Assembly (NCBI GenBank): GCA_019058445.1
Contig: JAHPZA010000010.1
Location: 224,001 to 288,000 of the forward strand
Source of the DNA: Promethearchaeota archaeon
Lineage (GTDB): Archaea > Asgardarchaeota > Lokiarchaeia > Sigyniarchaeales > SOKP01
DNA: 64,000 bases
Reading direction: 5' to 3'
Below, in pieces: positions 29,976 through 61,814 of the stretch. A model generated the notes under the pieces. It saw only the letters and a program-made list of their open reading frames with translations, was not told the origin of the DNA and made no database searches. Numbering within the stretch: position 1 is the stretch's first letter; every line of letters starts with the position of its first letter. Both the position numbers and the translations under genes were made by a program.

Positions 29976-31211
29976 ATGAGCATTAAATCTTTATTAAATA
30001 AAATCAAATCAATGCAGAACACTCAAAAAATTCAATTCTTAATAGTAAATTTAATTTGTTTTTTCGCAATTTTTCTTATATTAATCTATGGAATTCTTTT
30101 CTTAGATCCATTTTTGGAGCCTGTTAATTCAGATGATAAAGCTTATATTAGAATGGCAGAAAATATCTTTGTGCCTGTTGATGCTCCATGGAAATATCGT
30201 ATATTAACACCATTACTAGTATATTTACTTCCTTTTAATGTTATTACTGGTTTTATTATTGTAAACTTGACAAGTCTATATTTGACTTCAGTTTTAATGT
30301 TTTATTATCTTAGAAAATTTGACTTTAATTTTAAAATAAGTATTGTGGGTATGCTTCTTTTTATTTTAAATCCAATTACTCTAGGACTTCTTATAGCAAT
30401 TTGTGTAGTAGATTTATTATCTTTTTTTTTTATATTGCTGAGTTTTTATGCTTTATTTGACAAAAAAGAGAAATTATTTCTCTTCACGGTTAGTGTAGGA
30501 GTTGCTAATAGAGAAGTTATTTTAATTATGTTAATTTTTTATTTTATCTTAAAAAATACAGAATTAGACTTATTATCATCTATAAAATCAACGTTATTAA
30601 TTTCAATTATTCCTGTAGTTGTTTTCTTTTTAATACGATTTATTTATGGCTTTGATGCAAATTATTTTTCTATTGATTTAGTCGGAAATACTATCTTAAC
30701 TCATTATAGAACCTTTCAATCAAATATATTTATTCATCCATATTTAATTTATTTACCTTTCGGGATCTTTTGGTTAGTAAGTTTAATAAATTTGCGTAAA
30801 TTGGATAACATTTTTCTTAAAAAATCAATATTTTTAATTCCATTCATATTTATGCAGGCATTTATTGCCACAAATTATTCACGTCTTCTATTTATTGCAT
30901 TTCCTTTAATCATTCCAATTAGTTTATATATTTTCAAAATTAATTTTTCAAAAAAACTACTAATCTCTCTATTTGGTTTAGCCAGCATTCTTTCTGTTGT
31001 ACATTTTATAGGAGTAATTTATTTTATCCAATCAAATCCTTACTCGATACTCACAAATCCAGAAAATTATTTGTTCTATGCATTTTTTATTACCATATTT
31101 GACATTTTCTCTTGTATAGTCTTCACATTATTACTTTTAAAAAGAGAATTCTTTTTTAAAAACAATTCAATGACCAAATTAGCGATTCAAACAACCGTTG
31201 AAATAAATTAG
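29976..31211 (+). CDS. Polytopic membrane protein, putative GT-C glycosyltransferase
   Basis: About 11 TM segments. First loop SDDKAYIRMA..APWKYRILTP, plus VVD and NRE motifs. Confidence 0.55.
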   Translation: MSIKSLLNKIKSMQNTQKIQFLIVNLICFFAIFLILIYGILFLDPFLEPVNSDDKAYIRMAENIFVPVDAPWKYRILTPLLVYLLPFNVITGFIIVNLTSLYLTSVLMFYYLRKFDFNFKISIVGMLLFILNPITLGLLIAICVVDLLSFFFILLSFYALFDKKEKLFLFTVSVGVANREVILIMLIFYFILKNTELDLLSSIKSTLLISIIPVVVFFLIRFIYGFDANYFSIDLVGNTILTHYRTFQSNIFIHPYLIYLPFGIFWLVSLINLRKLDNIFLKKSIFLIPFIFMQAFIATNYSRLLFIAFPLIIPISLYIFKINFSKKLLISLFGLASILSVVHFIGVIYFIQSNPYSILTNPENYLFYAFFITIFDIFSCIVFTLLLLKREFFFKNNSMTKLAIQTTVEIN

Positions 31212-31219
31212 TCTCATCT

Positions 31220-32833
31220 TTAGGGTTTTTTTCCTCCACCTTTTTGGGAGGGAAGAAAAATCTCAATTTTTTGAACCAATTTTCTAATAAGATAATTTTT
31301 TGAATTAAGAATTGGTATAATTTTTATCATATCATTAAATTCTTTTTTTGTTATTGTTTTGGTAAAGTAAAAAATTATATAAAAAACAAGAGCAAAAACA
31401 CTGAATTTAATAGTCCCATTTATGAAGAAATTAATGTATGCTTTATCAAAATAATCAATATTTATTAAATAGTTTAAAGGATAGACAATTATAAAACTAA
31501 CCAAAAAAATGATAAAAGGCTTAAAGAAAAATACAAAATTAAGCTGTAACTCCGTTTGTTTATTGATCAGATATACACTAATAAACGTCATAAGAAATGA
31601 ACATAGTAAATAAAAGATTATTAAGGTAAAAAAATCAAAGTATAATAGAACTATTATTGTAAACACTATAGTGATAATCATTCTAATAAATTCAATCTCT
31701 GCATTAATTTTAGTGTTATTTGTCGATAATGTTAAAATCATAAGGTTATTAATAATGACCTGCGCAAACGCCATAAATAAAAATAATTGAATTGCCCTCA
31801 AAATAACAAGGTATATTTCTGAATAAATCACCACAATATAAAATTCTATATAAAAGATCATAATTCCCACGATAATACAAACAAAGATCATTAAAAATTT
31901 ATTCAATTTATAAAAAAGATTTTGATATACCTCAGAATTTTTTTCATAATCAATTTCTGAGAAGATTGAGATATATGCTTCTGGATTTGAACTTGAAAAT
32001 AACAATGCAGATGTAGCTGAAATTTGACATATCGTAATATATGTAATAAATACCACGAACTCAAATTCTAAAAATAAGATATTAACTATTAAACCAGTCA
32101 ATAATCCAAAAACATCTGCTAAAATTAAATAAGTTCCATATTTTCTATGTATATTGTAAAATTCTGATTTCTGATCAAACCCTTCTAATTCACCTTTTGC
32201 TTTAGAAGATATAAAACTTATTATTAAAATCATAGAAACAATACCAGATACAATAGTTCCTAACAGGAAAGCATAAGAAATTAGGAATATAGGTTTGTCT
32301 AATTTATAGAAATAAATTAGAAAATTAATTGTAGTTACTGTTATAGGATTTAAAATTCTGGCAAAAAAAACTGATTTGAACTTATGAAAAGCATATAAAA
32401 CGGAATCGTTAAGATCTATTAGTACTTTACATAATATCATAGGTGACATAATTAAAATCATTGAAAACAAAATGGTTCCAAAATCAGCTAATAATGTAAT
32501 CAATAAATATAATAATAAAATGAGAAATGCACTAATTAATCTTATTTTATAGACATGTATTATAAATTTTCTTCTAACTTCTTGATTGTTACTGTTAATT
32601 GATAAATGTGGGATATAATACATAATTGTTTCTTGAGCATTTGGGGGAAATAGATTACTGAGAAAAATAGCAATATTAATAAATGAAATTACTAGGATTA
32701 ATAAGGCCCATTCTTCAGGGGTCAGTAACCTTGCAAGTACAAAAGTATTTGAAATACTAAAAAAAAAAGTCAAATAAACTGTTAATAAATTAAAACTGCT
32801 ACTTTCTGCAACTTTTTTTTGTACTTTAAGCAT
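31220..32833 (-). CDS. Oligosaccharide flippase (MOP/Wzx family)
   Basis: KKVAESS...LARLLTPEEW N-terminus and 12-14 TM segments. Confidence 0.78.
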   Translation of the reverse strand: MLKVQKKVAESSSFNLLTVYLTFFFSISNTFVLARLLTPEEWALLILVISFINIAIFLSNLFPPNAQETIMYYIPHLSINSNNQEVRRKFIIHVYKIRLISAFLILLLYLLITLLADFGTILFSMILIMSPMILCKVLIDLNDSVLYAFHKFKSVFFARILNPITVTTINFLIYFYKLDKPIFLISYAFLLGTIVSGIVSMILIISFISSKAKGELEGFDQKSEFYNIHRKYGTYLILADVFGLLTGLIVNILFLEFEFVVFITYITICQISATSALLFSSSNPEAYISIFSEIDYEKNSEVYQNLFYKLNKFLMIFVCIIVGIMIFYIEFYIVVIYSEIYLVILRAIQLFLFMAFAQVIINNLMILTLSTNNTKINAEIEFIRMIITIVFTIIVLLYFDFFTLIIFYLLCSFLMTFISVYLINKQTELQLNFVFFFKPFIIFLVSFIIVYPLNYLINIDYFDKAYINFFINGTIKFSVFALVFYIIFYFTKTITKKEFNDMIKIIPILNSKNYLIRKLVQKIEIFLPSQKGGGKKP

Positions 32834-32876: not shown

Positions 32877-33899
32877 TCAAAAAATTAAATTCAAAATCTT
32901 TAAAAATATTCTTAAAATTTTAACTTTACTTAAAATTCTACCTAAAATTATTGAATCCAAATTTCTATCTAGAAAATTCTTTTCAATTTTATTAGTTATA
33001 GTATTATCTTCCTTAAATCTCAGATATCTAATATTTTTAATATTTAATATGAGAAATTTATATATATTTAACCGTAATTTTAATTTGCTTGTAATAAAGG
33101 CTTGAAATAGGAGTATGAGTTCAGAAATAATAAGATACGGTATTAGACTCTTAAAATTTTTAATATTTTTATAAATTACTAAATATCGATTTCTTTCAAT
33201 ATAATAATAAGTAAAATCATTTATGCTCATATGTATCTTCTGATGAAACAATACTGATTCATTAGTAGTATATATAAGGTTTCCATTTCTAAGAGCCCTT
33301 AATGAAAAGTCAGTATCTTCATGATACATAAAAAAAATAGGATCAAATCCATTTAATTTAAGATACAAATTTCTTTTCATGAACATACTACATCCAGATG
33401 CTTTATGTGTTTTAAATGTAGCAGTTTGGTTTGGAATTTTGTGATACATCAAAGGTGAATAAGAAAAGCCTAAAAAGTGTATTTTTGCACCGTAATAATT
33501 AATAAAATGACCTGGAAAGATAATAGCTGGGCTAATGATTATTTCATGATCTTTTTTTAGCTTTTTGTATAATTTTAATAAAACAGTAAAAAAATCATTA
33601 GGAAAAGCTACATCTTGATTTGTTATGTAAATAAACTCTCCTTTAGCTTTTGAAATCGCGATATTACATGCCTGAGCAAAACCCAAATTAGTATTTTGAT
33701 TAATAAGAGTAATATTAATATCTTTTTTGAAAGAATTTATTATACCTTTGGTTGAATCTTTAGAATTATTATCAACTATTATTAATTCTATTTCAATTAA
33801 ATTATTCAAATTTTTTATTGATTGTAAATTATTATAAATCACTTCTTCCCCATTAAACGTTGGAAAAACTATTGAGATTTTAATCTGAGAGGCACTCAT
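32877..33899 (-). CDS. GT2 glycosyltransferase (WbbL/GlfT-like subgroup)
   Basis: ISIVFPTFNG, VDNNSKD, NLGFAQACN, NQD and FFMYHEDTD motifs. Confidence 0.88.
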   Translation of the reverse strand: MSASQIKISIVFPTFNGEEVIYNNLQSIKNLNNLIEIELIIVDNNSKDSTKGIINSFKKDINITLINQNTNLGFAQACNIAISKAKGEFIYITNQDVAFPNDFFTVLLKLYKKLKKDHEIIISPAIIFPGHFINYYGAKIHFLGFSYSPLMYHKIPNQTATFKTHKASGCSMFMKRNLYLKLNGFDPIFFMYHEDTDFSLRALRNGNLIYTTNESVLFHQKIHMSINDFTYYYIERNRYLVIYKNIKNFKSLIPYLIISELILLFQAFITSKLKLRLNIYKFLILNIKNIRYLRFKEDNTITNKIEKNFLDRNLDSIILGRILSKVKILRIFLKILNLIF

Positions 33900-34046
33900 C
33901 AAAAACTAGATAGTTTGAAATTCTATGAGATCTAATTATTTTGTGAAATATATTTATAAAATGATTTTAACTAAAAAACATTTTTAATAATAATTATTTT
34001 TGGATTAAATATTAATTTAGAGGATTAATATTTGGTATTCACAATA

Positions 34047-35846
34047 TTAATATTTTGTTCTGAATATAAGCGCATCATTAATTTCAATCCTCTCAAAATA
34101 CTTTTCATCTTCAAAAAGTTCTATTTTAAATTCAATATCATGGAAATCTCGACCTTCAGGATAGTTATCAATTTCAAATGCAAAAACTAATTTGGTTGAA
34201 TTTTCCTTAAGCGTTAGAAAGATATAATCGATTCTATCGAATTTATTATTGACTATTTTCTTATAAACTTCTTTAGATGAATTGCATTCAGATAATTTAA
34301 TAAGGAATTTCACTCTTTCATTATGAAGCGCGCTTGGATGAGCGAAGTATGGATTAGGTAACAAGAACAAATAAATTGGTAAAAATGCTGCTATCCTCCA
34401 TTCACTTGTTAAAAATACCTTATCCTCATAATCAAGTTCCTCGAAAATGTCTCGTATTTCTCTCATAGATTGTCTTTTTAAGGCAAGCTGATAAGAAGGA
34501 GTAACCGAAATAAAATGCCAATGAGAATAACATTGAACAGTCATTATAGATATCACAAAAAATATCTCAAATTGATATAAGTTTATTTTGATTTTATTTG
34601 ATTTTAAAATATTATTTTCTGCTAAATAATAAAAAAATCTTACGTAGGCGATACATGTGCTTATAACTAAAATATATCCCGAGATTGATATTATCCTAAT
34701 ATGCATTATGGGAAAATTAATCATTAAGCCAATAAAACCAATTAAAAACAAAATATGAACGGATAATAAAAAATTCCCAAGGATCTTCATCTCACGTGAT
34801 AAATTATACTTATGAATGATATAAACTAAACCAATTATCCATGGACTAACCATTATAATGTTTAACAAAGGATAAGTAAACATAGTACTCCATATAAATC
34901 GGTTTTGATGGCTTTCAAAACCAATAAATAAAATATCTCTTAGAATCGGTATCCAAAACCAACAACTAAATAAAATTAAAAGACATGTGATAATTAAAAT
35001 GCGTTTTAAATTATTTTTAAATTCTCGTGGGTTTTGGATTAATGATATAAGATAATATATGGGAATTAATAAAAAATAGAGAAAATAAGTACAAAAAATG
35101 ATAGATCCAATGATACCTGCGATAAAATAGTCAGATTTGTCATATTTTATCTCTTTAATATTCTCATAATAATACATAAAATATGGAAGAATAAGAAAAC
35201 CTCCGATCATATGATCTGGATCATAAATATTAACCAGAAAACTTGAAGAGATTATTGTAATAATAAGGGCTAACTTTTGATCGTATATTTTTTTCCAAAA
35301 TTCAAAAAGAATGATTGGTAAAATATATACCGTTATCAACATCCCGATTCTTACCATCTTATAAGGTGCTATATGAAAAATTATAGCAATTAAAGCTAAA
35401 CAATACCAATAAAAGGGAGCGTAATATGCCGAAAGTCCTTTATAAGCAAAATCCTGAGGAATTCCTGAATAATACATTTTAGTGATATAGGCTGTACGGT
35501 AAAAATTATCCCCTTTTAAGGCATTATATCCCCAATGTGTATTATAAAATAAAAATAAATATGCAGCAAAATTGAAGATTGAGAATAAAATAATGGTTCT
35601 TTTATAATTTACGCTATAGAAATTATTTTTGGAATTCACTTGGTTTAGAACTAAAAAAATTAAAAAAAAAGATAATGTTAAAATCAAAAGAAAAGTCGTT
35701 CTATATATGGCATTCCAGTATTGTTTAGGAAAAAATTTATAGAGCCCGATAAAGAACAAGCATCCAATCGAAGAGAAAAAAAGTTCTTGTATAAAATCTG
35801 ATTTAAGTACAGATTTTACAGAATTTCTTAATTTTTCCTTATCCAT
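34047..35846 (-). CDS. AftA-like (GT85) arabinofuranosyltransferase, GT-C fold, copy 1
   Basis: GDNFYRTAYITKM..QDFAYKGLSAYYAPFYW loop, about 12 TM segments, C-terminal VFLT..FAHPSALHNER..IDYIFL. Matches the AftA N/C motif pattern as recalled. Confidence 0.75.
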   Translation of the reverse strand: MDKEKLRNSVKSVLKSDFIQELFFSSIGCLFFIGLYKFFPKQYWNAIYRTTFLLILTLSFFLIFLVLNQVNSKNNFYSVNYKRTIILFSIFNFAAYLFLFYNTHWGYNALKGDNFYRTAYITKMYYSGIPQDFAYKGLSAYYAPFYWYCLALIAIIFHIAPYKMVRIGMLITVYILPIILFEFWKKIYDQKLALIITIISSSFLVNIYDPDHMIGGFLILPYFMYYYENIKEIKYDKSDYFIAGIIGSIIFCTYFLYFLLIPIYYLISLIQNPREFKNNLKRILIITCLLILFSCWFWIPILRDILFIGFESHQNRFIWSTMFTYPLLNIIMVSPWIIGLVYIIHKYNLSREMKILGNFLLSVHILFLIGFIGLMINFPIMHIRIISISGYILVISTCIAYVRFFYYLAENNILKSNKIKINLYQFEIFFVISIMTVQCYSHWHFISVTPSYQLALKRQSMREIRDIFEELDYEDKVFLTSEWRIAAFLPIYLFLLPNPYFAHPSALHNERVKFLIKLSECNSSKEVYKKIVNNKFDRIDYIFLTLKENSTKLVFAFEIDNYPEGRDFHDIEFKIELFEDEKYFERIEINDALIFRTKY

Positions 35847-35980: not shown

Positions 35981-37027
35981 ATGGCTAAAAGATTAAATTC
36001 AATTGATATCTTAAGAGGGATTTCAGTAATTCTTATGATATTTGGACATGTTTTTTATGCTTGGCCTATAGTTAATAACATTTTTCTGATCAATTTGTTT
36101 ATATTTATTTTCCTTTTGGCACCTCCTTTATTTTTAATTATTTCTGGTTTTAGCTTCTATCTTTTTGTAAACAACATGAAAATGAACTCTTACTCGAAAA
36201 AAAAAATTTTTATTGAAATATTAAAAAGAGCTTTATTTATATCAATTGTTACAACGATGTTTATCTTGATATTCGGATTTATTTATAATCTAAAAATATC
36301 CTTTATAATTTACTGGAGTATTTTTCAAGTTATTTCTTTATCAATGATATTATTCTGGTCAATCATTTTCATAAGACAAATTTACAGATTAATATGTTAT
36401 TTGTTTCTAATTTGTATAATTTTCTTAATAAATCTTATAATTTGTTTTTACAAAATTTACTTATTATATATTTTAATTAAAGGAGAATCTTTTTCATTCA
36501 TCCCGTGGTGCAATTTCTTTATATTTGGTCTATTAGTTAGTGATCTTTTAAATAACACTCAACAAGAGAAGATTAAAAAAATCATATTAATGTTTCTGGT
36601 TATAATTATTAATAATCTACTACTTTGGGCAATATTTTCAACTATGATAACAGATTCATTTTTCTTACATTATTTAAAATCTATAAGTTTTTTCGTTATA
36701 TCATTCGCTATATGTTATTATTATATTGATATCAAAAATTATGATACCAAATTTTCAAAATATTTGACCCAATGGGGTAGAATTGCTTTTTCTATTTACT
36801 ATATTCAATTTATACTTATTATTGGAGGAAGACTATTAATACCACTAATAATTTATGAATTAGTTTTATTTATTCCTGTTGAATTTCTTTTTTATTTAAT
36901 ATTGATATCTATATATTTGATATTGGAGATCATTATAAATATTTGGAAGAAATTTAATTATATTTACGGAATAGAATGGTTGATGAATCAAATTTCAAAA
37001 AAATCTTTATTTATAAAAAAAGATTAA
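35981..37027 (+). CDS. Transmembrane acyltransferase, DUF1624/HGSNAT-catalytic-domain-like
   Basis: RLNSIDILRGISVILMIFGH, PLFLIISG, FIPW and GIEW motifs, about 10 TM segments. Confidence 0.75.
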   Translation: MAKRLNSIDILRGISVILMIFGHVFYAWPIVNNIFLINLFIFIFLLAPPLFLIISGFSFYLFVNNMKMNSYSKKKIFIEILKRALFISIVTTMFILIFGFIYNLKISFIIYWSIFQVISLSMILFWSIIFIRQIYRLICYLFLICIIFLINLIICFYKIYLLYILIKGESFSFIPWCNFFIFGLLVSDLLNNTQQEKIKKIILMFLVIIINNLLLWAIFSTMITDSFFLHYLKSISFFVISFAICYYYIDIKNYDTKFSKYLTQWGRIAFSIYYIQFILIIGGRLLIPLIIYELVLFIPVEFLFYLILISIYLILEIIINIWKKFNYIYGIEWLMNQISKKSLFIKKD

Positions 37028-37085: not shown

Positions 37086-38900
37086 TTAATATTTTGTCTT
37101 ATAAATTAGTTCTCCATCAATTTCTATCCTTTCAAATAAGTTTTCATTTTCAAAAAGCTCAATATTAAATTCAATATCATAATAATCTCTACCATCGGGA
37201 AACTTCTCAATAGCTACTTGTAAAACTAATTTTGTGGAATTATCTTCCAAATCTAAATAAAAATAATCTATTGGACCAAATTTATTATCCATAATCTTAT
37301 CATAAAACTCTTTCGATGATTCGCACTCAGATAATTCAATTAAAAATTTTACTCTCTCATTATATAATGCGCTAGGGTGATTATAATAGGGATTTGGTAA
37401 TAAAAACAAATATATTTGCATGAACATGGCAACTTCCCACTTTTCTATAAGAAATACTTTATCTTCATAATCAAGCTCCTCAATTATATCTCTTACTTCT
37501 TCACTCATTGAATTTCCACTTTTGGCAGCTTTATAACCATCAGAATTGGCGATATATAATAAATTCCCTGTAGTTTGAACAATTGTTATTGAAATTAGGA
37601 GGAAAATTTCTATGTAACGAAAGTCTGCTTTAATTTTATTCTTTTTCAAAAAATCGTTCTCTTTTATAAAAATAAAAAATCTTACATAAAAAATACTTGA
37701 TGAAATCATTAAAATATATGCCGAGATTGGCATTATCCTAATATACATTAAGGAGATATTATTCATTACACAGATAAATCCTAATAAAAAATAAAAATGG
37801 ATAGCGATTAAAAGATTTCCGAGAATTCTCATATCTTGAGTTAAATTATATTTTCTTATTATGTAGACTATTCCAATTGTATTATATAAAGCGTAAATAC
37901 CAAAACCAAAATAATTTAATAAAGGATATTGAAACATTGATAAGTCAAAATAATTATTTTGATGGCTCTCAAATCCAATCAATAAAATATCTTTAGCAAG
38001 TGGAACCCAAAACCAACTACTAAATAAAAGTAATGCAACAGAAATGTAAAATAGATGTCTGAGATTTTTTCTAAATTTATTTTTATTCTGAATAAAAGAT
38101 ATTAAATAATAAATTGGAATTATTACAAAATACAAAAAATAGGTACATAATATTAAAGCTCCTAAAAAACCCCCAATTATATAGTCTTTTTTTGTAAACG
38201 TCTTATTTGTATAATTTTCAAAATAATAAATAAAATATGGAATTATAAAAAGAGATCCAAGCATGTGATCCGGTGAGTAAATATTAATAAAATAAATAGA
38301 AGACATTATTGAAATAACAAATGATATTTTTTCATCATAAATTTTTTTCCATGATTCGTATAAAATTATTGGAGAAAAAAAAATTGTAATTAACATTCCT
38401 ATTCTAAGCATTTTATAGGGTGCTATATTTAATAATATAGATAACAATGCTAAGCTATACCAATAAAGGGGAGAATAAAATGCTGAGTATCCTTTATAAG
38501 CAAAATCTTGCGGATACCCTGAATGTGCCATATGAGTAACATAAGCTGTACGATAGATATTATCCCCAGCCAATCCATTATATCCCCAATTTGTATGATA
38601 AAATAAGAATAAAAAAATAGAAAAATTAAATACGGTGAATAAAATAATATTCTTTTTATAACTTATTTTAAAGGAAGACTTATTAGAACCTATTTGGCTA
38701 ACAAATATAAAGACTAGAAAAAATGCCAAACTTAAGATTAAAATAATAGTACTTCTATAAAACTTATTCCAATAATGTTTTGGAAAAAAAAGATAAAGTA
38801 AAACAAAAAATCCACATCCAAGTGCGGAATAAAAAAGTTCTTGGACAATATCCTTTTCGAATATTGATAATAAAGAACTTTTATATTTCTTCTTTTCCAT
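37086..38900 (-). CDS. AftA-like (GT85) arabinofuranosyltransferase, copy 2
   Basis: GDNIYRTAYVTHM..QDFAYKGYSAFYSPLYW and NHPSALYNER. Colinear paralog of copy 1. Confidence 0.75.
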   Translation of the reverse strand: MEKKKYKSSLLSIFEKDIVQELFYSALGCGFFVLLYLFFPKHYWNKFYRSTIILILSLAFFLVFIFVSQIGSNKSSFKISYKKNIILFTVFNFSIFLFLFYHTNWGYNGLAGDNIYRTAYVTHMAHSGYPQDFAYKGYSAFYSPLYWYSLALLSILLNIAPYKMLRIGMLITIFFSPIILYESWKKIYDEKISFVISIMSSIYFINIYSPDHMLGSLFIIPYFIYYFENYTNKTFTKKDYIIGGFLGALILCTYFLYFVIIPIYYLISFIQNKNKFRKNLRHLFYISVALLLFSSWFWVPLAKDILLIGFESHQNNYFDLSMFQYPLLNYFGFGIYALYNTIGIVYIIRKYNLTQDMRILGNLLIAIHFYFLLGFICVMNNISLMYIRIMPISAYILMISSSIFYVRFFIFIKENDFLKKNKIKADFRYIEIFLLISITIVQTTGNLLYIANSDGYKAAKSGNSMSEEVRDIIEELDYEDKVFLIEKWEVAMFMQIYLFLLPNPYYNHPSALYNERVKFLIELSECESSKEFYDKIMDNKFGPIDYFYLDLEDNSTKLVLQVAIEKFPDGRDYYDIEFNIELFENENLFERIEIDGELIYKTKY

Positions 38901-41702: not shown

Positions 41703-41926
41703 TCTCGAAGATAAGTGAAATTTAAATTTTTTAATTCTCTACTATTTAATACTTTAATATTTATTAGTAAGCTTTTACCTTTTTAGTTAAAGAAACGCAT
41801 ATATTTTTTAAAGACATTATATTAAAAAAAAAATTTAATTTTATGAGTAATTTTAATATATTAAAAACCAAACTTCTAAATACAAATTAGGGTAAGCATT
41901 TGTCGCATCATGTTTCTTATAATAAA

Positions 41927-43264: not shown

Positions 43265-43285
43265 TTGCTTTTATCTCCATAGATA

Positions 43286-52358: not shown

Positions 52359-53543
52359 ATGGATGATTTGAATACTTCTACCTTACTTTATATTACGCAA
52401 ACAAGACAAAAAAACCTTGATAAACTAATTGGACATAGATTTACTGAAGCTTTTTCATGGAGGTATTATTTTAAGAGAGTTATTGTTTTATTTTACTCAT
52501 CTACAAATAATTATCTTTTTAAAAAAATACATAGTAATACGTATACGATTGGAATACCATTTGATTTATCATCTTCAACTGGGAAAAGTATTTTTAATCT
52601 CGGGAAAAATTATTTAAATTTATTAGTATTTTTGTTTAAACTTACAAAAATAATTAAAATTGATATGATTAGATTAGAGAATATTGTTATATCGGGACCA
52701 CCAATATTCGTAATAAGTAAAATTAAAAAAATTCCACATGTTCTATGGTTAGGTGGTTATGAAAGAAAAGCAATATTCGCAAAATACAAAAAAAATTTAT
52801 TGACTTGGTTTATATCAAAAATTATTGTTATTTTTGAATCAATAATTTTCAGGAATGCTAATTTTGTTTATCCTGTATCAGATGAACTTTTAGATTTAGT
52901 AAAAAAAAGATTTGTTAAAAATGTTTTTTTAAGTCCCAATTATATAGATTTATCCCTTTTTAGTGATCACCATGAAAATGAACAAACTATAGAAAATAAG
53001 ATTTCCCTATTGTATGTTGGAAGATTTGAAGAAGAAAAAGGAATAAAAATTCTTATAAAATCAATAAAAATCTTATTAAAAGAAACTAATAATTTTGAAT
53101 TAAATTTAGTTGGTGATGGCTCACTTAAAGATTGGATAGTCAATTTTATTGAGAGAAATAATATTAAAAATATAAGACTTCTTGGATTAATAGATTATAA
53201 AGATATGCCTAATATTTATAATATGGCAGACGTGTTTATTTTACCATCAATAACAGAAGGTTCACCAGGATCGATAATTGAGGCAATGGGATGTGGAACT
53301 GCTACAATCTGCACTGCTGTTGGAGAATGTCCAAAAATAATTAAAGATGGTATTGATGGGATTATAATAGAACCAAATGATCCTCAAAAACTAGCAGAGG
53401 CAATTATATATCTTATTAATAATAGAGATTTAATTACAAAATTTAGGAAAAATGGAAGACTTTCTGCTATTAGACGGACAAAGAATTATATAAAAATACA
53501 TAAATATGTTTATGAACAAATTTTAAAAACTTTTAAGGTTTAG
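52359..53543 (+). CDS. GT4 glycosyltransferase
   Basis: YVGRFEEEKG and PSITEGSPGSIIEAMGCG motifs. Confidence 0.92.
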   Translation: MDDLNTSTLLYITQTRQKNLDKLIGHRFTEAFSWRYYFKRVIVLFYSSTNNYLFKKIHSNTYTIGIPFDLSSSTGKSIFNLGKNYLNLLVFLFKLTKIIKIDMIRLENIVISGPPIFVISKIKKIPHVLWLGGYERKAIFAKYKKNLLTWFISKIIVIFESIIFRNANFVYPVSDELLDLVKKRFVKNVFLSPNYIDLSLFSDHHENEQTIENKISLLYVGRFEEEKGIKILIKSIKILLKETNNFELNLVGDGSLKDWIVNFIERNNIKNIRLLGLIDYKDMPNIYNMADVFILPSITEGSPGSIIEAMGCGTATICTAVGECPKIIKDGIDGIIIEPNDPQKLAEAIIYLINNRDLITKFRKNGRLSAIRRTKNYIKIHKYVYEQILKTFKV

Positions 53544-53578: not shown

Positions 53579-55444
53579 ATGGAGTATCTTATAGGGGGAT
53601 ATATAGAAAATCCTCAACTATTGATTGAGAAAACTTTAAAATTTTTTGAGAAAAGATTTTCTCAACCTGTTGTATTTGAAGGAATCACCAAAAGTAATTC
53701 TTTTATGGGTATTATTAAAGAAAAGTCAAAAAAAACGAATGTTAATATTTGGTTTTTTGATGAGTGTAAGTTATTTAAAAGCTTATATTATAGTAAGATC
53801 CCAGAAAATATAAAAGGAAAAAAATCTGATAAGGATCATCGAATAGAATTAGCTAATTTAAAAAATGATTATATTTTTGTCAATTATGATGAACAAAAAG
53901 GAATAAAAGTTTATAAGGATATATTTGCACGTGAAAAAGTATATTATACAATAAACAAGCCATATTTATTCAGTACTTCTTTAAAATTATTAATTTTTTT
54001 ATTGGAGAAACCAAATTTCAATTATATATCATTAGGACGTTATTTAGGATCTGGTTTAAACAACGGAAATGAAACTATCTTTAAAGAAATTAACAGATTA
54101 GAACTTGGAGAGAATTTATATATTAACTCAGATAATATCAAAGTATTTAAAACTTGGATACCATCAAAAGAATTTTTTAAAATATCAAACCACACTGTAT
54201 TAGATACTCAATACTGGGTTGATTATATTTATGATACGTTAAAAGAAACCTTAGACTTACCAACTGAGCAACCAATTTTATCAATGATGAGTGGTGGTTT
54301 AGATTCAACTGTTCTTACTTCGATTTTTAAAAAAGAATACGAAACTCCTATTGAAGCATTAACAGTCTTTGTTCCTGGTTATAATGAAGAAGAAGTTGAA
54401 AAAGCAAGAGAAATAGCTGAATATATTGATATTCCTCATTTTATTAATGAAATAAAAATCAGAGATTATGAAAGTTTTATAAATACTTCTACGGAAATAT
54501 TTAATATCTTAGAAGAACCAATGGGAGGAACAGCATATTTTTCAAGATTTTCGGGATACCATGAAATTAATAAATTAGCTAAAAAAAATTCTATGATTGG
54601 TGAGGGTGCTGGTGAATCAATGAGTTACTTAAGACACCATGTCTTAAATAATTTTAAAAGAACTTCCTATTTATTTCATATACCCAGAAAAATGAGAATT
54701 CATGCTTCTAGATTATTACATCATTTTTATTATCCGTCTTTTAAGATTACTAATTTATTGAAAAATAAGAATACAATAAATTCTATTGATATTTTGCTTA
54801 ATTCTAATTTTTTAGACACTAATTCTAAATTTCAAACTTTTATGACTTCTGTTCAATTTACCCATATGGAAGATGTTTTTAAATTAACTCGTCGTAGATT
54901 AAGTTTAGATGTATATTCAGATGTGAATGTAAACATTTATAACTCTTATCCTTATAATGATTATAATAAATTTGGATATCAACTCTTATATTTAAGTCCA
55001 AATGGAGATCCTTTAATTTCTAGTGTTTTATCCAGTTATTATGATCTAAAACTATATATTCCTTTTAATTCAGATCTATCTTTTAAAAAGCTTATACCTT
55101 TACCACCTTATATTAAATTAACTGGAGAAGGTTATAGAAGTCGATATAAATGGATTGTTCGTGAAATGGCAATGAGAAAAAGACTTTTACCTGAAAAATA
55201 TTTTGAGTGGAAACCAAAGTATGGTTTAAGGCAGGAGTTTTTCAATCCAGATTCGTTCAATACTGTTAAAACCTATGCCCTTGATATAATTAAAACATTG
55301 AATCCTGAATTCTACCTTAATTTAAATAGTTTTAAAAACTTTTTTAAAAAATCAACTTTAAAGAGAATAAAACATCACTCATCTGAATATTTGAAATTTA
55401 ATATTTGGCTTGGATTTTTAGGATGGTTAGCTTCAATTTCTTAA
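53579..55444 (+). CDS. Divergent asparagine-synthase-related ATP-dependent amide ligase lacking the N-terminal Cys
   Basis: MSGGLDST PP-loop, EEPM, GEGAGE and KW..RE..LP..KPKYG motifs. N-terminus MEYLIGG lacks Cys and HRG. Confidence 0.75.
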   Translation: MEYLIGGYIENPQLLIEKTLKFFEKRFSQPVVFEGITKSNSFMGIIKEKSKKTNVNIWFFDECKLFKSLYYSKIPENIKGKKSDKDHRIELANLKNDYIFVNYDEQKGIKVYKDIFAREKVYYTINKPYLFSTSLKLLIFLLEKPNFNYISLGRYLGSGLNNGNETIFKEINRLELGENLYINSDNIKVFKTWIPSKEFFKISNHTVLDTQYWVDYIYDTLKETLDLPTEQPILSMMSGGLDSTVLTSIFKKEYETPIEALTVFVPGYNEEEVEKAREIAEYIDIPHFINEIKIRDYESFINTSTEIFNILEEPMGGTAYFSRFSGYHEINKLAKKNSMIGEGAGESMSYLRHHVLNNFKRTSYLFHIPRKMRIHASRLLHHFYYPSFKITNLLKNKNTINSIDILLNSNFLDTNSKFQTFMTSVQFTHMEDVFKLTRRRLSLDVYSDVNVNIYNSYPYNDYNKFGYQLLYLSPNGDPLISSVLSSYYDLKLYIPFNSDLSFKKLIPLPPYIKLTGEGYRSRYKWIVREMAMRKRLLPEKYFEWKPKYGLRQEFFNPDSFNTVKTYALDIIKTLNPEFYLNLNSFKNFFKKSTLKRIKHHSSEYLKFNIWLGFLGWLASIS

Positions 55445-55917: not shown

Positions 55918-57783
55918 ATGTCCGAAGAGAACTCGGTTATCATAAAGTCAAGTTTTCGAAATCTAAGGAAAAAAATATCCGAATTATCTCATCTCGATTT
56001 AGTTCAAGAATTTTTTTATGCTGGAATCGGGATACTCCCTTTCCTGATTTTATATAGTTTTCTTCCGAGTAGTTATTGGGAAGAACCCTACAGAAATATA
56101 ATTTGTGCCATCATAATCTTATCCTTTTTTATGGTTTTTATTATATTAAACCAACCAACCTCCCAATTAAAAGTCTTGAAGGTAAATTATAAGAGAAATA
56201 TTATTCTTTTTACAGTTTGTAATCTTGCAATTTTAACTTTCTTATTTTTTAGAACGGATTTTGGGTATTATGGTTTGTATGCAGATAATTATTATCGTAC
56301 AGCTTATGTTACTCAAATGGCTTATAGCATGTATCCTCAGGACATGGCCATTAAAGGTTATTCGGCTTTTATGGCTCCTTTGTATTGGTATATACTAGCT
56401 TTAATCGCAGTACTATTTCACATCGAACCATACAAAATGATACGAATTGGATTTCTTATCTCATACTACATATTACCGATACTCTTGTATGAGGTTTGGA
56501 AAAAGTTAGTAGACAAAAAATCATCTTTTTATATAACAGCTATTTTTTTTACCTTCATCGCTAATTTTAATGAAATAACTTGGATTGATCATTTAATTGG
56601 ATATGCATTCTTCGTTCCATTTTTTATATATTATTTTGAAAACTATAAAAATAAAGATTTTATAAAGAAAGATTATATTATCGCAGGGCTCCTCGGATCT
56701 TTACTGATATGTACTTTTTATTTATATTTTATACTAGTTCCTATTTATTTAATGATAGTTTTTATTCAAAGTAAACTAAAAAAAGAGCTCTATGAATTTA
56801 AACGGAAACTAATAAGAATTTCTCATATTACAATCTTCATTATTTTATTTAGTTTATGGTTTTGGGTCCCATTAACAATAAATATAATTCTTATAGGCTA
56901 TGAGAACCATCAAAACCTTTTTTTTCCGAATTATGCTTTAGACATGCCTTTTGAAGCTTATTTAAAATTTAATTTATTTAGTATAGTATTGATATTAGGA
57001 GTAATATTTATCTTAATGAATTACAGTACTTCAAAATTCCTGAATATTCTTGGAAATCTTATATTATCAGTCTATATCCTCTATTTATTAGGATTTGTAG
57101 GATTACTAATTGGGTTTCCTCTAGTGCATTACAGAGTTTTAGTAGTATCTCATTATGTTATTTTAATTGCTTTTAGTATATTCTATATAAAATTCTTCCA
57201 AATTTTAAGAGAAAGCAATATAATTGTCCAATTTAAGAAAAAGATTAATTTAAAAACTGTTGAGATATATATCATTATAATTATCATATTTTACCAAAAT
57301 TATGAGAATACGGTAAAACTTTATAAATCAGAAGGTTATAAACGTAGTGTTAACGAGGAAATTCCAGATGAAGTTGAGATATTTCGTGAATTAGATTATA
57401 AAGATAAAGTTTTTTTAACACAATATTATGAAGTTGCTGCATATTTACCTATTTATCTATTTGTTGTTTATAATACCCATTTTAGTCATCCTAGTGCGTT
57501 AAATAATGAAAGAATAAAGTTCTTAAAAGATTTATCCGAATGTAAGTCATCAAAAGAATTTTATGATAAAATAATGAATAATAAGTTTGGTCCCATTGAT
57601 TATTTTATTCTTGAACCTACAAATGATAATGAAACTGAATATCTATTTGATACGGCTGAAATAGAGTATTATCCAAATCGCTGGAATGTAAAAATAACTT
57701 TTGATGCAGAACTTTTTGAAAGCAGTAGTTATTTTGAGAGACATAAAATTAAAGAAGTAATTATTTATAAGACAATTTATTAA
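55918..57783 (+). CDS. AftA-like (GT85) arabinofuranosyltransferase, copy 3
   Basis: ADNYYRTAYVTQM..QDMAIKGYSAFMAPLYW, SHPSALNNER and GPIDYFIL motifs. Confidence 0.75.
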   Translation: MSEENSVIIKSSFRNLRKKISELSHLDLVQEFFYAGIGILPFLILYSFLPSSYWEEPYRNIICAIIILSFFMVFIILNQPTSQLKVLKVNYKRNIILFTVCNLAILTFLFFRTDFGYYGLYADNYYRTAYVTQMAYSMYPQDMAIKGYSAFMAPLYWYILALIAVLFHIEPYKMIRIGFLISYYILPILLYEVWKKLVDKKSSFYITAIFFTFIANFNEITWIDHLIGYAFFVPFFIYYFENYKNKDFIKKDYIIAGLLGSLLICTFYLYFILVPIYLMIVFIQSKLKKELYEFKRKLIRISHITIFIILFSLWFWVPLTINIILIGYENHQNLFFPNYALDMPFEAYLKFNLFSIVLILGVIFILMNYSTSKFLNILGNLILSVYILYLLGFVGLLIGFPLVHYRVLVVSHYVILIAFSIFYIKFFQILRESNIIVQFKKKINLKTVEIYIIIIIIFYQNYENTVKLYKSEGYKRSVNEEIPDEVEIFRELDYKDKVFLTQYYEVAAYLPIYLFVVYNTHFSHPSALNNERIKFLKDLSECKSSKEFYDKIMNNKFGPIDYFILEPTNDNETEYLFDTAEIEYYPNRWNVKITFDAELFESSSYFERHKIKEVIIYKTIY

Positions 57784-57798: not shown

Positions 57799-59802
57799 AT
57801 GTTAGTTGGTACAAAAGATTATTTCCTGAATTTTTTACTAGTTTGTCTAATCTTTTATTTATTTGTCATCTTAATCTCTGTTTTTGGATTTATTTTTATA
57901 TACTATATTCGAAAAATAAACAAGAAAGATTGGGAATTAAATTTCATAGAAACATTCATAATTAGTTTTGCCATCGGCTTATCTATATACATTTCTTATT
58001 GTTTTATATTAGATATTTTCAAATTTTATAATTTTTTCTCTGGATACTACATATTTGCTATAATTGATGCCTACTTTATTTGGTATTTAATATATCGAGG
58101 AGAAATTAATAGTAAACAGATTTCAAATTATTTTTCCTCTTTAATAAAAAAAATCAAAACCCAAACTAAACAGACAATTACACTAATCCTTATTCTAATT
58201 TTCGTATTCTGTTGGCAAATATGGGTTCAGTGGGAAATAATAACCAGTGAGTATGCCATTCCTTCCAGAGATACCTACGTTTGGCTAGGACAGTCATGGT
58301 ATTTATTAGAAAACGGTTATCTTTGGAGAGAACATATGCCACTCCATTATCCGAAAGGATATACCTTTTATCTGGCTGGACCAGAGCTAATTTATCCCGA
58401 TTGGCGTTTAGCATATTTTTATATGAAGTTTGGAGGAATACCTTTTTTTTCCTTTTATATTTTTGTTGTTTTTATTATTTTAAAGCGTTTATTCCAACTA
58501 AATTATATGATTTTCATAGGTTTATTATTAATTTTGATATCTAACTACTTATATTCTAGCTTTGATTCTTTCGTTTCATCCTCAATTCCCACTTTATTAA
58601 TTCTAATATCTTTAATTATTTTTATTTCGAAATCACCATTTTATCTTACAGGATTTTTTATATCAGTAATTTTCCTTTTTAATGCAATATTTGGATTATT
58701 TTACCTAATGATAATTATTCCATTGCTTTTTATAAAATTTTTATCTGTAAAACGAGAATATAGTAAATTTATAGTTAATTTTATTGGAAAAACAGGGATT
58801 ATCACAGTAACTTTATTGATATCCTACGTAATTCATACTATTATTGTTCAAAATGTTTCCATTTTTGATATAATATATGCATATTTATTTGAATTTGGAT
58901 ATCTAAATACTAATATCTCTAATAGAATTGTTTTAACAGGATCAACCCCTGTTATCTTACAATTTAGGTATATTTTAAGAGATTTATTTCCCCATAATGA
59001 TATTATTTCTCAATTTTTAGACATTGAAAAGAAAGTGTTATCTTATTTCTTTATATTTGTTTTAATAAGTTTGTTCTTACCTACAAAACGATTTTTTAAT
59101 AAAAAATATCGAGATTTTATTAACCTAGCAAAAATTGCAGTTTTAGTAATCATTACTTTCTACGTGGCAGAAATAATTTTTGAAGATTCTTCAAATATTT
59201 TTGCTCAAAGCATACCGTGGTTTAAGTGGAGAGCTTTAGAGGCTTTTGCTGCACCCTCAATCATTTTATGTTGTTTTGTAATTGAAAAGGTTATTGAAAA
59301 GACAAATAAGCTTACATTTTACTTGTTCAATAAAAGTAGACTATATAAAAACCTCATAAGAAATACAACAATCTCAAAATTCGTTAGAATCGAAAATATT
59401 GTGATATCTTTATTGATAATTTCAAGCTTAGCCACCCTTGTAAGTCAACAAAGGATTTATACCAGTTATTATTTTGAAAAAGATCAAATTGATACAATTT
59501 TCTACATTAAAGAAAATATTCCCGATGAATCCAAAATCTTAGTTTCGGATTTTAATGATGGCCCTAATTGTCTTTATAATTTACTAAGCACCTATAAAGT
59601 CTACAAATGGGATTTTGAATTCAGCGAAAATACATTTAATGAAACTATTGAATATATCATTGATAAGGGGATTGATTATATTTTGTTGGATTACACCATG
59701 ATTAATTCTACTGAAAAGGGTTTTTTTACCAGCTATTACTATTTTGATGATTTGTATGAAAATGATTATGATATCATTTTTGAAGTTGAAATTAAGACTT
59801 AA
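57799..59802 (+). CDS. Polytopic membrane protein, putative GT-C glycosyltransferase
   Basis: SRDTYVW..HYPKGY loop, many TM segments, C-terminal YIKENIP..IDYILL domain. Starts 15 bp after AftA-like copy 3. Confidence 0.55.
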   Translation: MLVGTKDYFLNFLLVCLIFYLFVILISVFGFIFIYYIRKINKKDWELNFIETFIISFAIGLSIYISYCFILDIFKFYNFFSGYYIFAIIDAYFIWYLIYRGEINSKQISNYFSSLIKKIKTQTKQTITLILILIFVFCWQIWVQWEIITSEYAIPSRDTYVWLGQSWYLLENGYLWREHMPLHYPKGYTFYLAGPELIYPDWRLAYFYMKFGGIPFFSFYIFVVFIILKRLFQLNYMIFIGLLLILISNYLYSSFDSFVSSSIPTLLILISLIIFISKSPFYLTGFFISVIFLFNAIFGLFYLMIIIPLLFIKFLSVKREYSKFIVNFIGKTGIITVTLLISYVIHTIIVQNVSIFDIIYAYLFEFGYLNTNISNRIVLTGSTPVILQFRYILRDLFPHNDIISQFLDIEKKVLSYFFIFVLISLFLPTKRFFNKKYRDFINLAKIAVLVIITFYVAEIIFEDSSNIFAQSIPWFKWRALEAFAAPSIILCCFVIEKVIEKTNKLTFYLFNKSRLYKNLIRNTTISKFVRIENIVISLLIISSLATLVSQQRIYTSYYFEKDQIDTIFYIKENIPDESKILVSDFNDGPNCLYNLLSTYKVYKWDFEFSENTFNETIEYIIDKGIDYILLDYTMINSTEKGFFTSYYYFDDLYENDYDIIFEVEIKT

Positions 59803-60095
59803 AAGAAGCACGGTCCCTCTTGAGTTCAATCTTATCAATTCCAACAGCAAAAAGAAATAAACTATAATTTAGTAAATAAAAAGAAAATCTTTTTTTCTAA
59901 CTTATATTGAAGTTCCCTTCTTAAAATAAAAATGAGAATAAATCCCAGAAGGAATTTTGTTTGATTTACAAATAAATATAAGATTAAATTTCCATTTGAA
60001 ATTGCAAATAAAAAAATAAATCTATGAAATAACTATTACTTTAAATAATTTTAATGAGATTTAAGATTTATTTTAATTCTTTATTTTTTTTGCTT

Positions 60096-61814
60096 TTATT
60101 TGGTATAATTCCCGTATTCTTCGACTGTATTTGGAAGATGGGGGGAAAAATCTTGTAGATTTTCGATTAAATCATCCCATTCTTCTGGATCAACCGCATA
60201 AAAAGTAACTTTACTAGAATAACATACAACATTTCTTGAGATTTTCCAAGATCCCGCCTTAATCCATTCTGAAGGGATTTCATAGCCAAAATAATTGCTT
60301 TCATAAACTATAGCAATTTTGACTCCTTTTTGCTTTGCTAATTTATAGACGGTATCTGTATCTAAATCATCATTAACAATTTCATTTGCTGAGTCAATAT
60401 CACCCAATCCCCATAGATCCACACACTCAATGTCAGAGAGATAATCGATAGCACCAATATCATTTGCAGCAACGCATTCTTCATTATAATATTCACGAAG
60501 AAAAAGACCCATTTGATACTGTTGTTCATAAATATTATTTGTCGCCTGAGGAATATCAGGTATAGTTTCGATTGCTCTATAGCTAAGAGGTGTGAAAAAA
60601 GAAATAAGGATAATAATAATCGTTAATAATCTAAAAAAACCGTATTCAAATGCTTCATTTTTTTTGAAAAGATAGTTTTTAAGTGCTTCAAATGAAAGAA
60701 ATGGGGGAATTTTGTTCGATATTGATGTAAATATTAGAACTATACCAATTGTTAGTAAATATGCGTCGTACCTGGATTCATATATGCCTCTTATACATAC
60801 AGTTGCAAAAAAAAGTTGACAGACTGAAGTAAACATAAAAATTAGAGCAAATATGGCCCGTTCATTCCATATATCTTTTGTCTTAAAGCATTTAGTATAA
60901 AATATGATTAATGCAATTATAAAAAAAATCAGTAGATGTGGAGCATAAAGATACATACCCATAGGATTAAACACTTTTAACTTATTGTCTAAGGAGGAAG
61001 AATTAAAATCTATAAGAGATCCTTTTATCACAACTGGATTTGGAAAAAAATACCATCCATAAGATAATGAAATTATCCCATAGATTATAATAGGAAGGAA
61101 GCCAAATAACGCTATGAGAAAAAAAAACCTATAATGCTTTTTGAGTAAGAAAAGGAAACAAACTATGATGATTAGAAACATCCCTTCAAATCTTATCATT
61201 GTAACTAATGGAGCCAATAATAATAATCGAAATTTATCCTTAGAAGAAAATATTTTATTTTTATTTGTATCAACATTAGAGAGCAATTGTGCTGTAATTA
61301 CTACGAAAATCAAATCTATTACATTCTGCATAGTATGTTCTAAACCAATAAAAACCAATGAGTGCAAAGGAAGAAAAAAAATAATGCACAATATTCCAAC
61401 AAAAGTAGCATAAGGGGGAAGGTGAGTTTTCATCTTTAGAATGTAATAAATCCCATAAATTAACAGATGAGCAAAAATAAGATTAATTATTAGAGGAATT
61501 AGTTCATAAGGGCCGAAAATAAGAAATAATAATGAAATTAACAAAGTATACAAAAGAGAGGATGAAGATGACGAAAATTCTTTTTTATTTACTCCCCATA
61601 CTCCATGTTGTGAAAAATTTTTTGCAATTGCCATATGAATATATGCGTCATCTAAAGAGTATATGAAATGTCCTTTATTTAGATGTAAAGAAAAAAGAAG
61701 TAATATAATCATTATTATCCAGAAAATGGCTAAATTGGAATAAAACTCCCAATTTTTTTTAATGTCCCTTAAACTATAATCCCTTTTAATATAATCTTGA
61801 GTTTGTTTAATCAA
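60096..61814 (-). CDS. GT-C glycosyltransferase, AftB (GT89)-like motif pattern
   Basis: LDDAYIH..AKNF..G..G..EFSSSSSSLLYTLL, GLE, RFEG, YG..FPNP..K and IGAI.Y....VDLWGL motifs. Confidence 0.65.
   Translation of the reverse strand: MIKQTQDYIKRDYSLRDIKKNWEFYSNLAIFWIIMIILLLFSLHLNKGHFIYSLDDAYIHMAIAKNFSQHGVWGVNKKEFSSSSSSLLYTLLISLLFLIFGPYELIPLIINLIFAHLLIYGIYYILKMKTHLPPYATFVGILCIIFFLPLHSLVFIGLEHTMQNVIDLIFVVITAQLLSNVDTNKNKIFSSKDKFRLLLLAPLVTMIRFEGMFLIIIVCFLFLLKKHYRFFFLIALFGFLPIIIYGIISLSYGWYFFPNPVVIKGSLIDFNSSSLDNKLKVFNPMGMYLYAPHLLIFFIIALIIFYTKCFKTKDIWNERAIFALIFMFTSVCQLFFATVCIRGIYESRYDAYLLTIGIVLIFTSISNKIPPFLSFEALKNYLFKKNEAFEYGFFRLLTIIIILISFFTPLSYRAIETIPDIPQATNNIYEQQYQMGLFLREYYNEECVAANDIGAIDYLSDIECVDLWGLGDIDSANEIVNDDLDTDTVYKLAKQKGVKIAIVYESNYFGYEIPSEWIKAGSWKISRNVVCYSSKVTFYAVDPEEWDDLIENLQDFSPHLPNTVEEYGNYTK

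Follow-up and report, generated by a model that had tools for sequence, protein, structure and literature searches.

What does an Asgard archaeon build with a dense run of membrane glycosyltransferases related to AftA, an enzyme known from the tuberculosis cell wall, and which sugar do these enzymes transfer? To our knowledge, next to nothing has been learned about the surface glycans of Asgard archaea, which matter for cell-partner contact and for how eukaryotic lumenal glycosylation arose. A GT-C-rich 32-kb stretch, lying within the window (the whole 64-kb stretch of DNA that was analysed, on contig C10), offers a concrete entry point to them. A sequence-only reading had described the locus as an arabinan-type glycosylation system of probable Asgard origin. 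The genome is indeed that of an Asgard archaeon, and the reading was borne out in part: the assignment to the AftA family holds, the AftB identity does not, and the arabinan interpretation is weak. We consider it most likely that the module adds sugars, probably of the hexose type, to a surface glycan outside the membrane, using dolichol-phosphate sugars.

AftA-family paralogs and their catalytic residues

The stretch belongs to a very large gene island for cell-surface glycans. All four open reading frames singled out earlier as AftA-like or AftB-like were recovered, at 34047-35846 (minus strand, 599 aa; copy 1), 37086-38900 (minus strand, 604 aa; copy 2), 55918-57783 (plus strand, 621 aa; copy 3) and 60096-61814 (minus strand, 572 aa). 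Identity is 57% between copies 1 and 2 and 46-47% between copy 3 and either of them. The AftA_N domain (PF12250) matched all three paralogs above its gathering cut-off of 26.7 bits (28.4, 41.6 and 34.7 bits for copies 1, 2 and 3, respectively), and a whole-genome scan with this model returned the same three proteins. AftA_C (PF12249; cut-off 25) scored 37.2 bits against copy 3 and 22.2 bits, below the cut-off, against copy 1, with no match reported for copy 2; the HPSAL-x-NER motif of the C-terminal domain is nevertheless kept in all three copies. By sequence, AftA was the sole match of the three paralogs among solved structures (PDB). Using phmmer, copy 3 aligned full length with M. tuberculosis AftA (Rv3792, the galactan 5-O-arabinofuranosyltransferase of CAZy family GT85; PDB 8if8) at E 9.4e-10 (residues 101-592 to 106-608), and the paralogs have the same layout of a membrane domain and a soluble C-terminal domain. 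The loop motif D-N-x-Y-R-T-A-Y ... P-Q-D-x-A-x-K-G-x-S-A ... P-x-Y-W and the C-terminal motifs VFL, HPSAL-x-NER and IDY were present as the sequence-only reading had described them, and their core residues are invariant across eight Asgard homologs.

In M. tuberculosis AftA, Asp128 is the catalytic residue, located in the first long external loop and stabilised by Arg132, and Arg415 touches the phosphate of the lipid donor; mutants at D128, R132 and R415 are inactive (PMC10265970). Equivalents of all three are kept in the Asgard paralogs. In copy 3, the counterparts of D128 and R132 are D123 and R127, both invariant in eight Asgard sequences; R406 aligns with Arg415 and is invariant in the Asgard alignment, and across 26 diverse AftA-family members the catalytic Asp never varies. 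The Asgard genome differs in having three paralogs and in the replacement of Glu134, which coordinates a structural Ca2+, by alanine (Ala129 in copy 3). Because the E134A mutant of the M. tuberculosis enzyme retains most of its activity (PMC10265970), Glu134 is not a catalytic requirement. Judging from this homology, the three ~600-aa paralogs are real, intact GT-C enzymes of the AftA family (GT85-type).

Distribution and conserved neighbours

AftA-like genes are rare in Asgard archaea, occurring in 8 of 400 genomes, where their sequences form their own clade; the family is also found in Haloarcula, Chloroflexota and Bacillota. Such a patchy distribution, along with these relatives, could suggest that a bacterial gene was transferred and that the paralogs are what is left of it, decayed or without catalytic activity. 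However, all frames are open, the catalytic residues are invariant across Asgard homologs that are 42-74% identical, the G+C content of the paralogs matches the 25% of the genome, and synteny is kept across genera. This explanation is highly improbable, and the conservation already contradicts it. Given the intact relatives in a distinct Asgard clade, Haloarcula, Chloroflexota and Bacillota, the AftA studied so far appears to be one branch of a wider, little-studied family of external glycosyltransferases. Databases already label such genes; the Asgard clade is distinct and, from its conserved residues, catalytically complete.

In G173, L019, L021 and L006, orthologs of copy 2 (52-60% identity) are flanked by the same genes, and P0020 is the ortholog of copy 3 (63% identical). 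A membrane acyltransferase (Acyl_transf_3 / HGSNAT-like by Pfam; 35981-37027, plus strand) retains its place next to the AftA-like gene in L019, L021, L005 and L006, and may acylate the same glycan. A GT2 with two C-terminal membrane helices (32877-33902, minus strand; Pfam Glycos_transf_2, helices predicted at residues 252-272 and 323-341) adjoins copy 1, and in L019 and L006 an 81% identical ortholog likewise borders on the AftA-like gene. It was considered as a dedicated AftA donor synthase, a role that is unproven: orthologs of this generic GT2 are encoded by 25 of the family's 135 genomes, where their contexts vary and AftA-like genes are mostly lacking. Among bacterial members, 20 metagenome loci held only housekeeping neighbours, with no UbiA, GT2 or GtrA genes nearby, making this context uninformative.

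Other GT-C enzymes, exporters and a dolichol-phosphate GT2

The 572-aa protein (60096-61814) had been proposed as AftB-like. It carries the motifs DDAYI, GLE, RxE, YG..PN...K and D..GL, whose residues vary little or not at all across 30 family members, and its predicted fold is confidently GT-C(A), the first juxtamembrane helix bearing the DD motif at its tip. Like AftB (Rv3805c, GT89; PDB 9dlf/9dlh), it combines a GT-C fold with a DD motif that is invariant and follows the first membrane helix, and its invariant Glu and Arg residues are spaced similarly to AftB E172, R221 and R372. However, AftB came only 26th in the structural ranking and was unmatched at E <= 10 among all PDB chains, both by phmmer with the protein itself and by hmmsearch with a 30-sequence profile of its family. 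We therefore rejected AftB/GT89 membership, although the motifs and the fold are as claimed. With no Pfam or NCBIfam match, the protein is, on the strength of its modelled fold, a GT-C glycosyltransferase of a large unnamed family.

Three further GT-C-like proteins had been suspected in the stretch, and they fared unequally. The 848-aa protein (39156-41702, plus strand), from an Asgard-only family with ~210 extra N-terminal membrane residues, is proven to be GT-C by fold. The 667-aa polytopic protein (57799-59802, plus strand), which lies 16 nt downstream of copy 3 and whose ortholog follows the copy-3 ortholog in L008, is a candidate GT-C: its nearest Atlas clusters are named PMT-domain proteins, which is a lead only, and its family profile found no match in the PDB. 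The 411-aa polytopic membrane protein (29976-31211, plus strand; ~10-12 hydrophobic segments) has no Pfam or NCBIfam match. The island encodes at least five GT-C-fold membrane glycosyltransferases, comprising the three AftA-family enzymes and the 572-aa and 848-aa enzymes, and profile-profile comparisons among the window's GT-C families revealed no detectable relation. Five or six GT-C enzymes are found within the 32-kb stretch.

The closest matches of both the 848-aa and the 572-aa proteins are oligosaccharyltransferases, the GT-C fold is common to AglB, STT3 and PglB, and the island encodes Wzx and ABC-2 exporters for lipid-linked oligosaccharides. It is conceivable on these grounds that the AftA-like proteins act en bloc, moving oligosaccharide from Dol-PP-oligosaccharide to protein, or polymerise repeat units. 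We find this improbable, because the paralogs match only AftA among solved structures by sequence, keep the AftA-specific Asp-Arg pair and the phosphate-binding Arg, and show neither a WWDxG-type oligosaccharyltransferase motif nor a Pfam match to STT3.

As for export, two flippases had been claimed. The Wzx-type oligosaccharide flippase at 46811-48493 (minus strand) is backed by Pfam (Polysacc_synt_3, 5.5e-21), whereas the 537-aa polytopic protein at 31220-32833 (minus strand; syntenic in L019 and G173) has no Pfam match and is a candidate MOP/Wzx-type flippase through its nearest Atlas clusters, which carry Polysacc_synt / Polysacc_synt_3 (score 0.99, a lead only). GtrA, a flippase for which a genome search had been proposed, is encoded by two genes elsewhere on contig C10 and by none in the 64-kb window. 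Cytoplasmic GT4 glycosyltransferases lie at 45597-46763, 48590-49786, 49987-51183 and 52359-53543, and a radical SAM/SPASM protein at 51271-52236 (all by Pfam). A hexapeptide acetyltransferase, a GFO/IDH/MocA oxidoreductase and a DegT aminotransferase (42749-45390, minus strand; Pfam) form what we take to be a WbpD/B/E-like set making an acetamido sugar nucleotide.

The predicted Dol-P glycosyltransferase proved to be well founded. The GT2 at 41900-42724 (plus strand), with one predicted C-terminal membrane helix (residues 230-249), is a polyprenyl-phosphate sugar synthase-like protein of the DPMS/AglJ/PpgS/ArnC type: its top PDB match is the P. furiosus Dol-P-Man synthase (5mlz, E 4.8e-18), with GtrB and ArnC ranking next, and its NCBIfam matches include AglJ (3e-24) and PpgS (1.7e-19). 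In both G173 and L019, its neighbours again include the 848-aa GT-C and the AftA-like gene. This arrangement recalls the Gtr systems that modify glycans of Salmonella and Shigella, which consist of a GtrA flippase, a GtrB GT2 polyprenyl-P-glucose synthase and a GtrC GT-C: a GtrB/DPMS-like GT2 with a C-terminal anchor sits beside GT-C transferases, and by analogy the same logic might apply, with decoration after export from a polyprenyl-P-monosaccharide. The carrier lipid in archaea would be dolichol, unlike in Gtr systems; the island also differs in having several GT-C enzymes, which are AftA-like or of new families, and no GtrA in the window.

The donor sugar

We know of no mycolyl-arabinogalactan wall in Asgard archaea, unlike in the host of AftA. 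The genome search did find a DPPR-synthase-like UbiA gene, located on contig C6 and not, as the window, on C10. Its product has the Rv3806c DPPR synthase as top PDB match (8j8j, E 2.2e-17), keeps the NDxRDxExDR motif, and has decaprenyl-phosphate phosphoribosyltransferase as its top NCBIfam model (153 bits, below the cut-off of 234). A PHP phosphoesterase gene directly follows, and the pair is kept in distant Asgard families too. The UbiA gene is present in all AftA-like-bearing genomes, but this co-occurrence is uninformative because DPPR-synthase-like genes occur in 230 of 400 Asgard genomes, with or without AftA-like genes, and AftA-like genes in only 8. The search for DprE1 yielded no ALO domain (PF04030) of this type in the genome, which is 92.6% complete, and this absence leaves no known route to arabinose; M. 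tuberculosis, in contrast, has this epimerase. The FAD_binding_4 protein nearest to the window was rejected as DprE1, being a GlcD-like Fe-S oxidase, and UDP-arabinopyranose mutase (RGP) was looked for and not found. Glf is encoded 31 kb upstream of the window, yet three AftA-like-bearing genomes of the same genus (G168, G173 and G174) lack it, and we rejected a galactofuranan link; the absence of one is a further difference from AftA.

GT-C family membership does not fix the sugar, since pentofuranose-using GT-C enzymes are spread over several unrelated families (PMC11127046). In the three-component pentofuranose systems, a PPPRS works with a MATE flippase and a GT136 GT-C (Kelly et al. 2024, PMC11127046). 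The Asgard case is similar in that an island GT-C adjoins the candidate MOP/MATE-superfamily flippase (31220-32833, a lead only) and the genome has a PPPRS-like UbiA enzyme and a separate phosphatase; it differs in that the PPPRS-like gene lies outside the island, with a distribution unlinked to that of the AftA-like genes, in that no auxiliary epimerase was identified, and in that the GT-C is GT85-like rather than GT136.

The sugar that the AftA-like enzymes transfer could be a pentofuranose taken from Dol-P-pentose, either ribofuranose or, following epimerisation, arabinofuranose. UbiA and PHP would make the donor from PRPP, resembling the route of mycobacterial arabinan synthesis or that of the bacterial three-component systems. 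The Rv3806c-like UbiA protein and its retained motif, the persistence of the UbiA/PHP pair, its presence in every AftA-like-bearing genome, and the fact that the sole characterised AftA-family member uses DPA all speak for this. Nevertheless, we regard it as unlikely, given the separate contigs, the unequal distributions (230 versus 8 of 400 genomes), the sub-threshold NCBIfam score, the missing DprE1-type domain, and the neighbours kept beside AftA-like genes in the Asgard loci examined, which include the DPMS-like GT2 but in no case a UbiA gene or an epimerase. Slightly more doubtful still is the specific version in which the Asgard UbiA and PHP proteins make dolichol-phosphate ribofuranose and the island AftA-family enzymes put pentofuranose on the cell surface; if true, it would be an archaeal counterpart of both mycobacterial arabinan priming and the bacterial three-component systems. 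As a counterpoint, the UbiA and phosphatase pair leaves a ribofuranosyl donor possible. The label "arabinofuranosyltransferase" that NCBI already attaches to such archaeal proteins is unsupported.

The sugar transferred is most likely a hexose or an N-acetylhexosamine, not arabinofuranose. Taken as a whole, a reasonably probable explanation is that GT-C enzymes decorate an exported glycan from Dol-P donors, with hexose or HexNAc the likely sugars; its basis is the AftA homology, the fold of two other GT-Cs, the conservation of essential residues and synteny, all of which we observed. In this scheme of decoration from dolichol-phosphate sugars, cytoplasmic GT4/GT2 enzymes would build a dolichol-linked glycan that the Wzx-type flippase or an ABC-2 transporter would export, and the DPMS/AglJ-like GT2 (41900-42724) would transfer one sugar residue from a nucleotide sugar to dolichol phosphate, yielding a donor that would then be flipped outward. 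The AftA-like enzymes might then attach single sugars to the exported glycan or glycoprotein at the outer membrane face, with the conserved Asp serving as general base, one Arg positioning this Asp and the other the phosphate; it is probably in acceptor or linkage that the three paralogs differ. Experiments are possible because a fused AftA-family member, protein UYP48012.1, is present in the cultured Ca. Lokiarchaeum ossiferum.

Three paralogs related to mycobacterial AftA

The three AftA-like genes of the window encode copy 1 (34047-35846, minus strand, 599 aa), copy 2 (37086-38900, minus strand, 604 aa) and copy 3 (55918-57783, plus strand, 621 aa). Copies 1 and 2 are 57% identical, and copy 3 shares 46-47% identity with both. 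The open reading frames exist as described in the sequence-only reading, and its motifs are present. Alignment with five Asgard homologs showed D123, N124, R127, A129, P140, D142, K146, S149, P154 and Y156 (copy 3 numbering) to be invariant, and likewise an H-P-S ... R block in the C-terminal domain. G+C content is 23-29% all across the window, so these genes do not stand out as foreign in composition.

The relationship to AftA, the mycobacterial GT85 arabinofuranosyltransferase, proposed in the same reading was also borne out. Copies 1, 2 and 3 scored 28.4, 41.6 and 34.7 bits against Pfam AftA_N, all above the gathering score of 26.7, and no other gene of the genome matched this model; copy 3 additionally matched AftA_C (37.2 bits; cut-off 25). 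Among all PDB sequences, the sole significant match of copy 3 was M. tuberculosis AftA (8if8, E = 9.4e-10), with residues 101-592 aligned to 106-608 of AftA. Previous work showed that AftA activity is abolished by D128A/N and by R132A, that the phosphate of the donor is held by R415, and that the Ca2+ ligand E134 is dispensable (PMC10265970). In the alignment with 8if8, D128, R132, R415 and E134 pair with D123, R127, R406 and A129 of copy 3, respectively. The equivalents of D123, R127 and R406 are invariant in the Asgard family, and the catalytic Asp is unchanged in 26 diverse family members. Judged by sequence, the three paralogs are relatives of AftA.

Host and distribution of the AftA-like family

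The nearest homologs, at 63-74% identity, are metagenomic, and those that are named belong to Promethearchaeota, Hodarchaeota, Hermodarchaeota and Lokiarchaeota MAGs. Together with a ribophorin I encoded in the genome, they place the host among the Asgard archaea, as had been guessed from the sequence. AftA_N is sparsely distributed, occurring in 8 of 400 genomes and 3 of 85 genera of the phylum, and in 4 of the 9 genomes of the window's own genus. A profile built from Asgard sequences and searched against 1.84 billion proteins recovered 540 cluster representatives at E <= 1e-3 (184 at E <= 1e-30). Named non-Asgard members include Calderihabitans maritimus and Risungbinella massiliensis (Bacillota), a Chloroflexota MAG, Haloarcula sp. 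CBA1127 and Micromonospora, all of which, like Asgard proteins, carry the NCBI name "arabinofuranosyltransferase".

FastTree analysis of 145 sequences placed the Asgard proteins in one clade (local support 100); the tree was quickly built and has no Corynebacteriales reference, so it gives no direction for any gene transfer. In it, copies 1 and 2 are paralogs of recent origin, and copy 3 has its ortholog in G173, a genome of the same GTDB genus as that of the window. Some members of the clade carry a fused right-handed beta-helix domain, among them a 938-aa protein (UYP48012.1) from the cultured Ca. Lokiarchaeum ossiferum that shares 34% identity with copy 3 over ~600 residues. Its gene, annotated as hypothetical, lies among GT4 genes on contig C1 of genome G138, which belongs to the same order (about 5028063-5030879; L033:11064-13880). 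A literature search found no publication on archaeal AftA-like enzymes. Here, the window contributes three copies of an uncharacterised, distinct archaeal clade of a known enzyme family, one that is already auto-annotated in public records.

Glycan genes around the paralogs

Copy-1/2-type genes are flanked on one side by genes for a membrane acyltransferase, an 848-aa GT-C and a DPMS-like GT2 (in G173 and loci L019, L021, L005 and L006), and on the other side, in L019, by a GT2 of the type encoded at 32877 and a 537-aa protein. Beside copy-3-type genes a GT4 is kept, joined in L008 by a 667-aa protein. Atlas leads make the 537-aa and 667-aa proteins a candidate MOP-flippase and a candidate GT-C, respectively. 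Of 135 genomes in the family, 25 have orthologs of the 32877-type GT2, in most cases with no AftA-like gene present, and these orthologs are often adjoined by other large polytopic proteins. The AftA-like gene thus appears to be an optional part of a recurring cassette that combines GT2 genes with a GT-C gene.

The 848-aa GT-C (39156-41702) has 44 homologs, Asgard-only where named, and a paralog (P0348) elsewhere on its contig; the family has ~210 additional membrane residues at the N-terminus, and its C-terminal globular domain resembles that of AglB. The GT2 at 41900-42724, with a single C-terminal membrane helix, best matched P. furiosus Dol-P-Man synthase in the PDB (E = 4.8e-18), followed by GtrB and ArnC; its NCBIfam matches were AglJ, PpgS and Dol-P-hexose transferase. 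The remaining genes also serve glycan biosynthesis, encoding GT4s, Wzx, an ABC-2 exporter pair, aminosugar enzymes, methyltransferases, Asn-synthase-like amidotransferases and radical SAM proteins. The ABC-2 pair (ATPase and permease, 5982-7726), of a type exporting lipid-linked polysaccharides, sits at the left end of the island. One 621-aa Asn-synthase-like protein (53579-55444), with a 67% identical counterpart in G173, has no detectable glutamine amidotransferase domain, whereas its paralogs at 19842-21683 and 26780-28582 do.

The protein at 60096-61814 (minus strand, 572 aa) had been read as AftB-like. The motifs behind that reading are present, and across 30 homologs they vary little or not at all; strongly invariant motifs of the family are DD, GLE, RxE and NDIGA. 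The structure prediction that the reading called for (AlphaFold2, pLDDT 85, pTM 0.86) gave a clear GT-C fold. The invariant E159, R208 and R348 are spaced similarly to E172, R221 and R372 of AftB, which hints that they may be equivalent. Assignment to GT89/AftB is not supported: searches of PDB sequences with the protein and with a profile of 30 sequences matched no AftB and no other GT-C at E <= 10. The protein is a GT-C enzyme of a widespread unnamed family (1836 matches, including Bacteroidota, Zixibacteria, Methanomethylovorans and Asgard), mostly named "hypothetical" and covered by neither a Pfam nor an NCBIfam model. Directly after its gene lie those for a membrane-anchored CotH kinase and a DUF4956 protein (62098-63928).

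Candidate sugar donors

The genome encodes two UbiA proteins, one of the DGGGP-synthase type. The other, on contig C6, best matched the DPPR synthase Rv3806c in the PDB (8j8j, E = 2.2e-17) and scored 153 bits against NF008977, under the cut-off of 234. Its gene is directly followed by that of a PHP phosphoesterase (pair at 1107369-1109051, minus strand; L011:8870-10552), an adjacency also found in distant Asgard families. Together the two genes represent a candidate dolichol-phosphate ribose pathway, with an AglH-like GT4 and ribophorin I encoded nearby. Across the phylum the UbiA model matched 230 of 400 genomes, including 117 of the 134 in the family, but none of four control archaea, indicating that the DPPR-synthase-like gene is not tied to AftA-like genes. 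Kelly et al. 2024 (PMC11127046) showed that GT-C enzymes adding pentofuranose share their locus with PPPRS and a MATE flippase, and in the case of Araf also with DprE1/E2 homologs; this pattern was not seen here, and the DPPR-synthase-like UbiA lies on C6 but the window on C10. Considering also that neither an ALO (DprE1) domain nor an RGP mutase was found in the 92.6%-complete genome, the most likely donor is a nucleotide-sugar-derived Dol-P-hexose or Dol-P-HexNAc, with Dol-P-ribofuranose a live minority option. Arabinofuranose is unlikely to be the transferred sugar, and the arabinan chemistry of the sequence-only reading is not supported.

A UDP-galactopyranose mutase, Glf (GLF domain, E = 2e-70), is encoded on C10 at 193138-193728; it lies 31 kb upstream of the window and makes galactofuranose synthesis by this strain probable. 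Glf occurs in just 26 of the family's 135 genomes and is lacking in all other genomes of the genus, those with AftA-like genes included. The proposed search for donor genes yielded no DprE1 domain, but did recover the DPPR-synthase-like UbiA on C6 and GtrA genes on C10. One of the latter, a GtrA-family flippase gene divergent from a GT2 gene (about 128379-129747; L023), forms a classic lipid-sugar synthase/flippase pair, and a second GtrA-like gene lies at 514474-514779.
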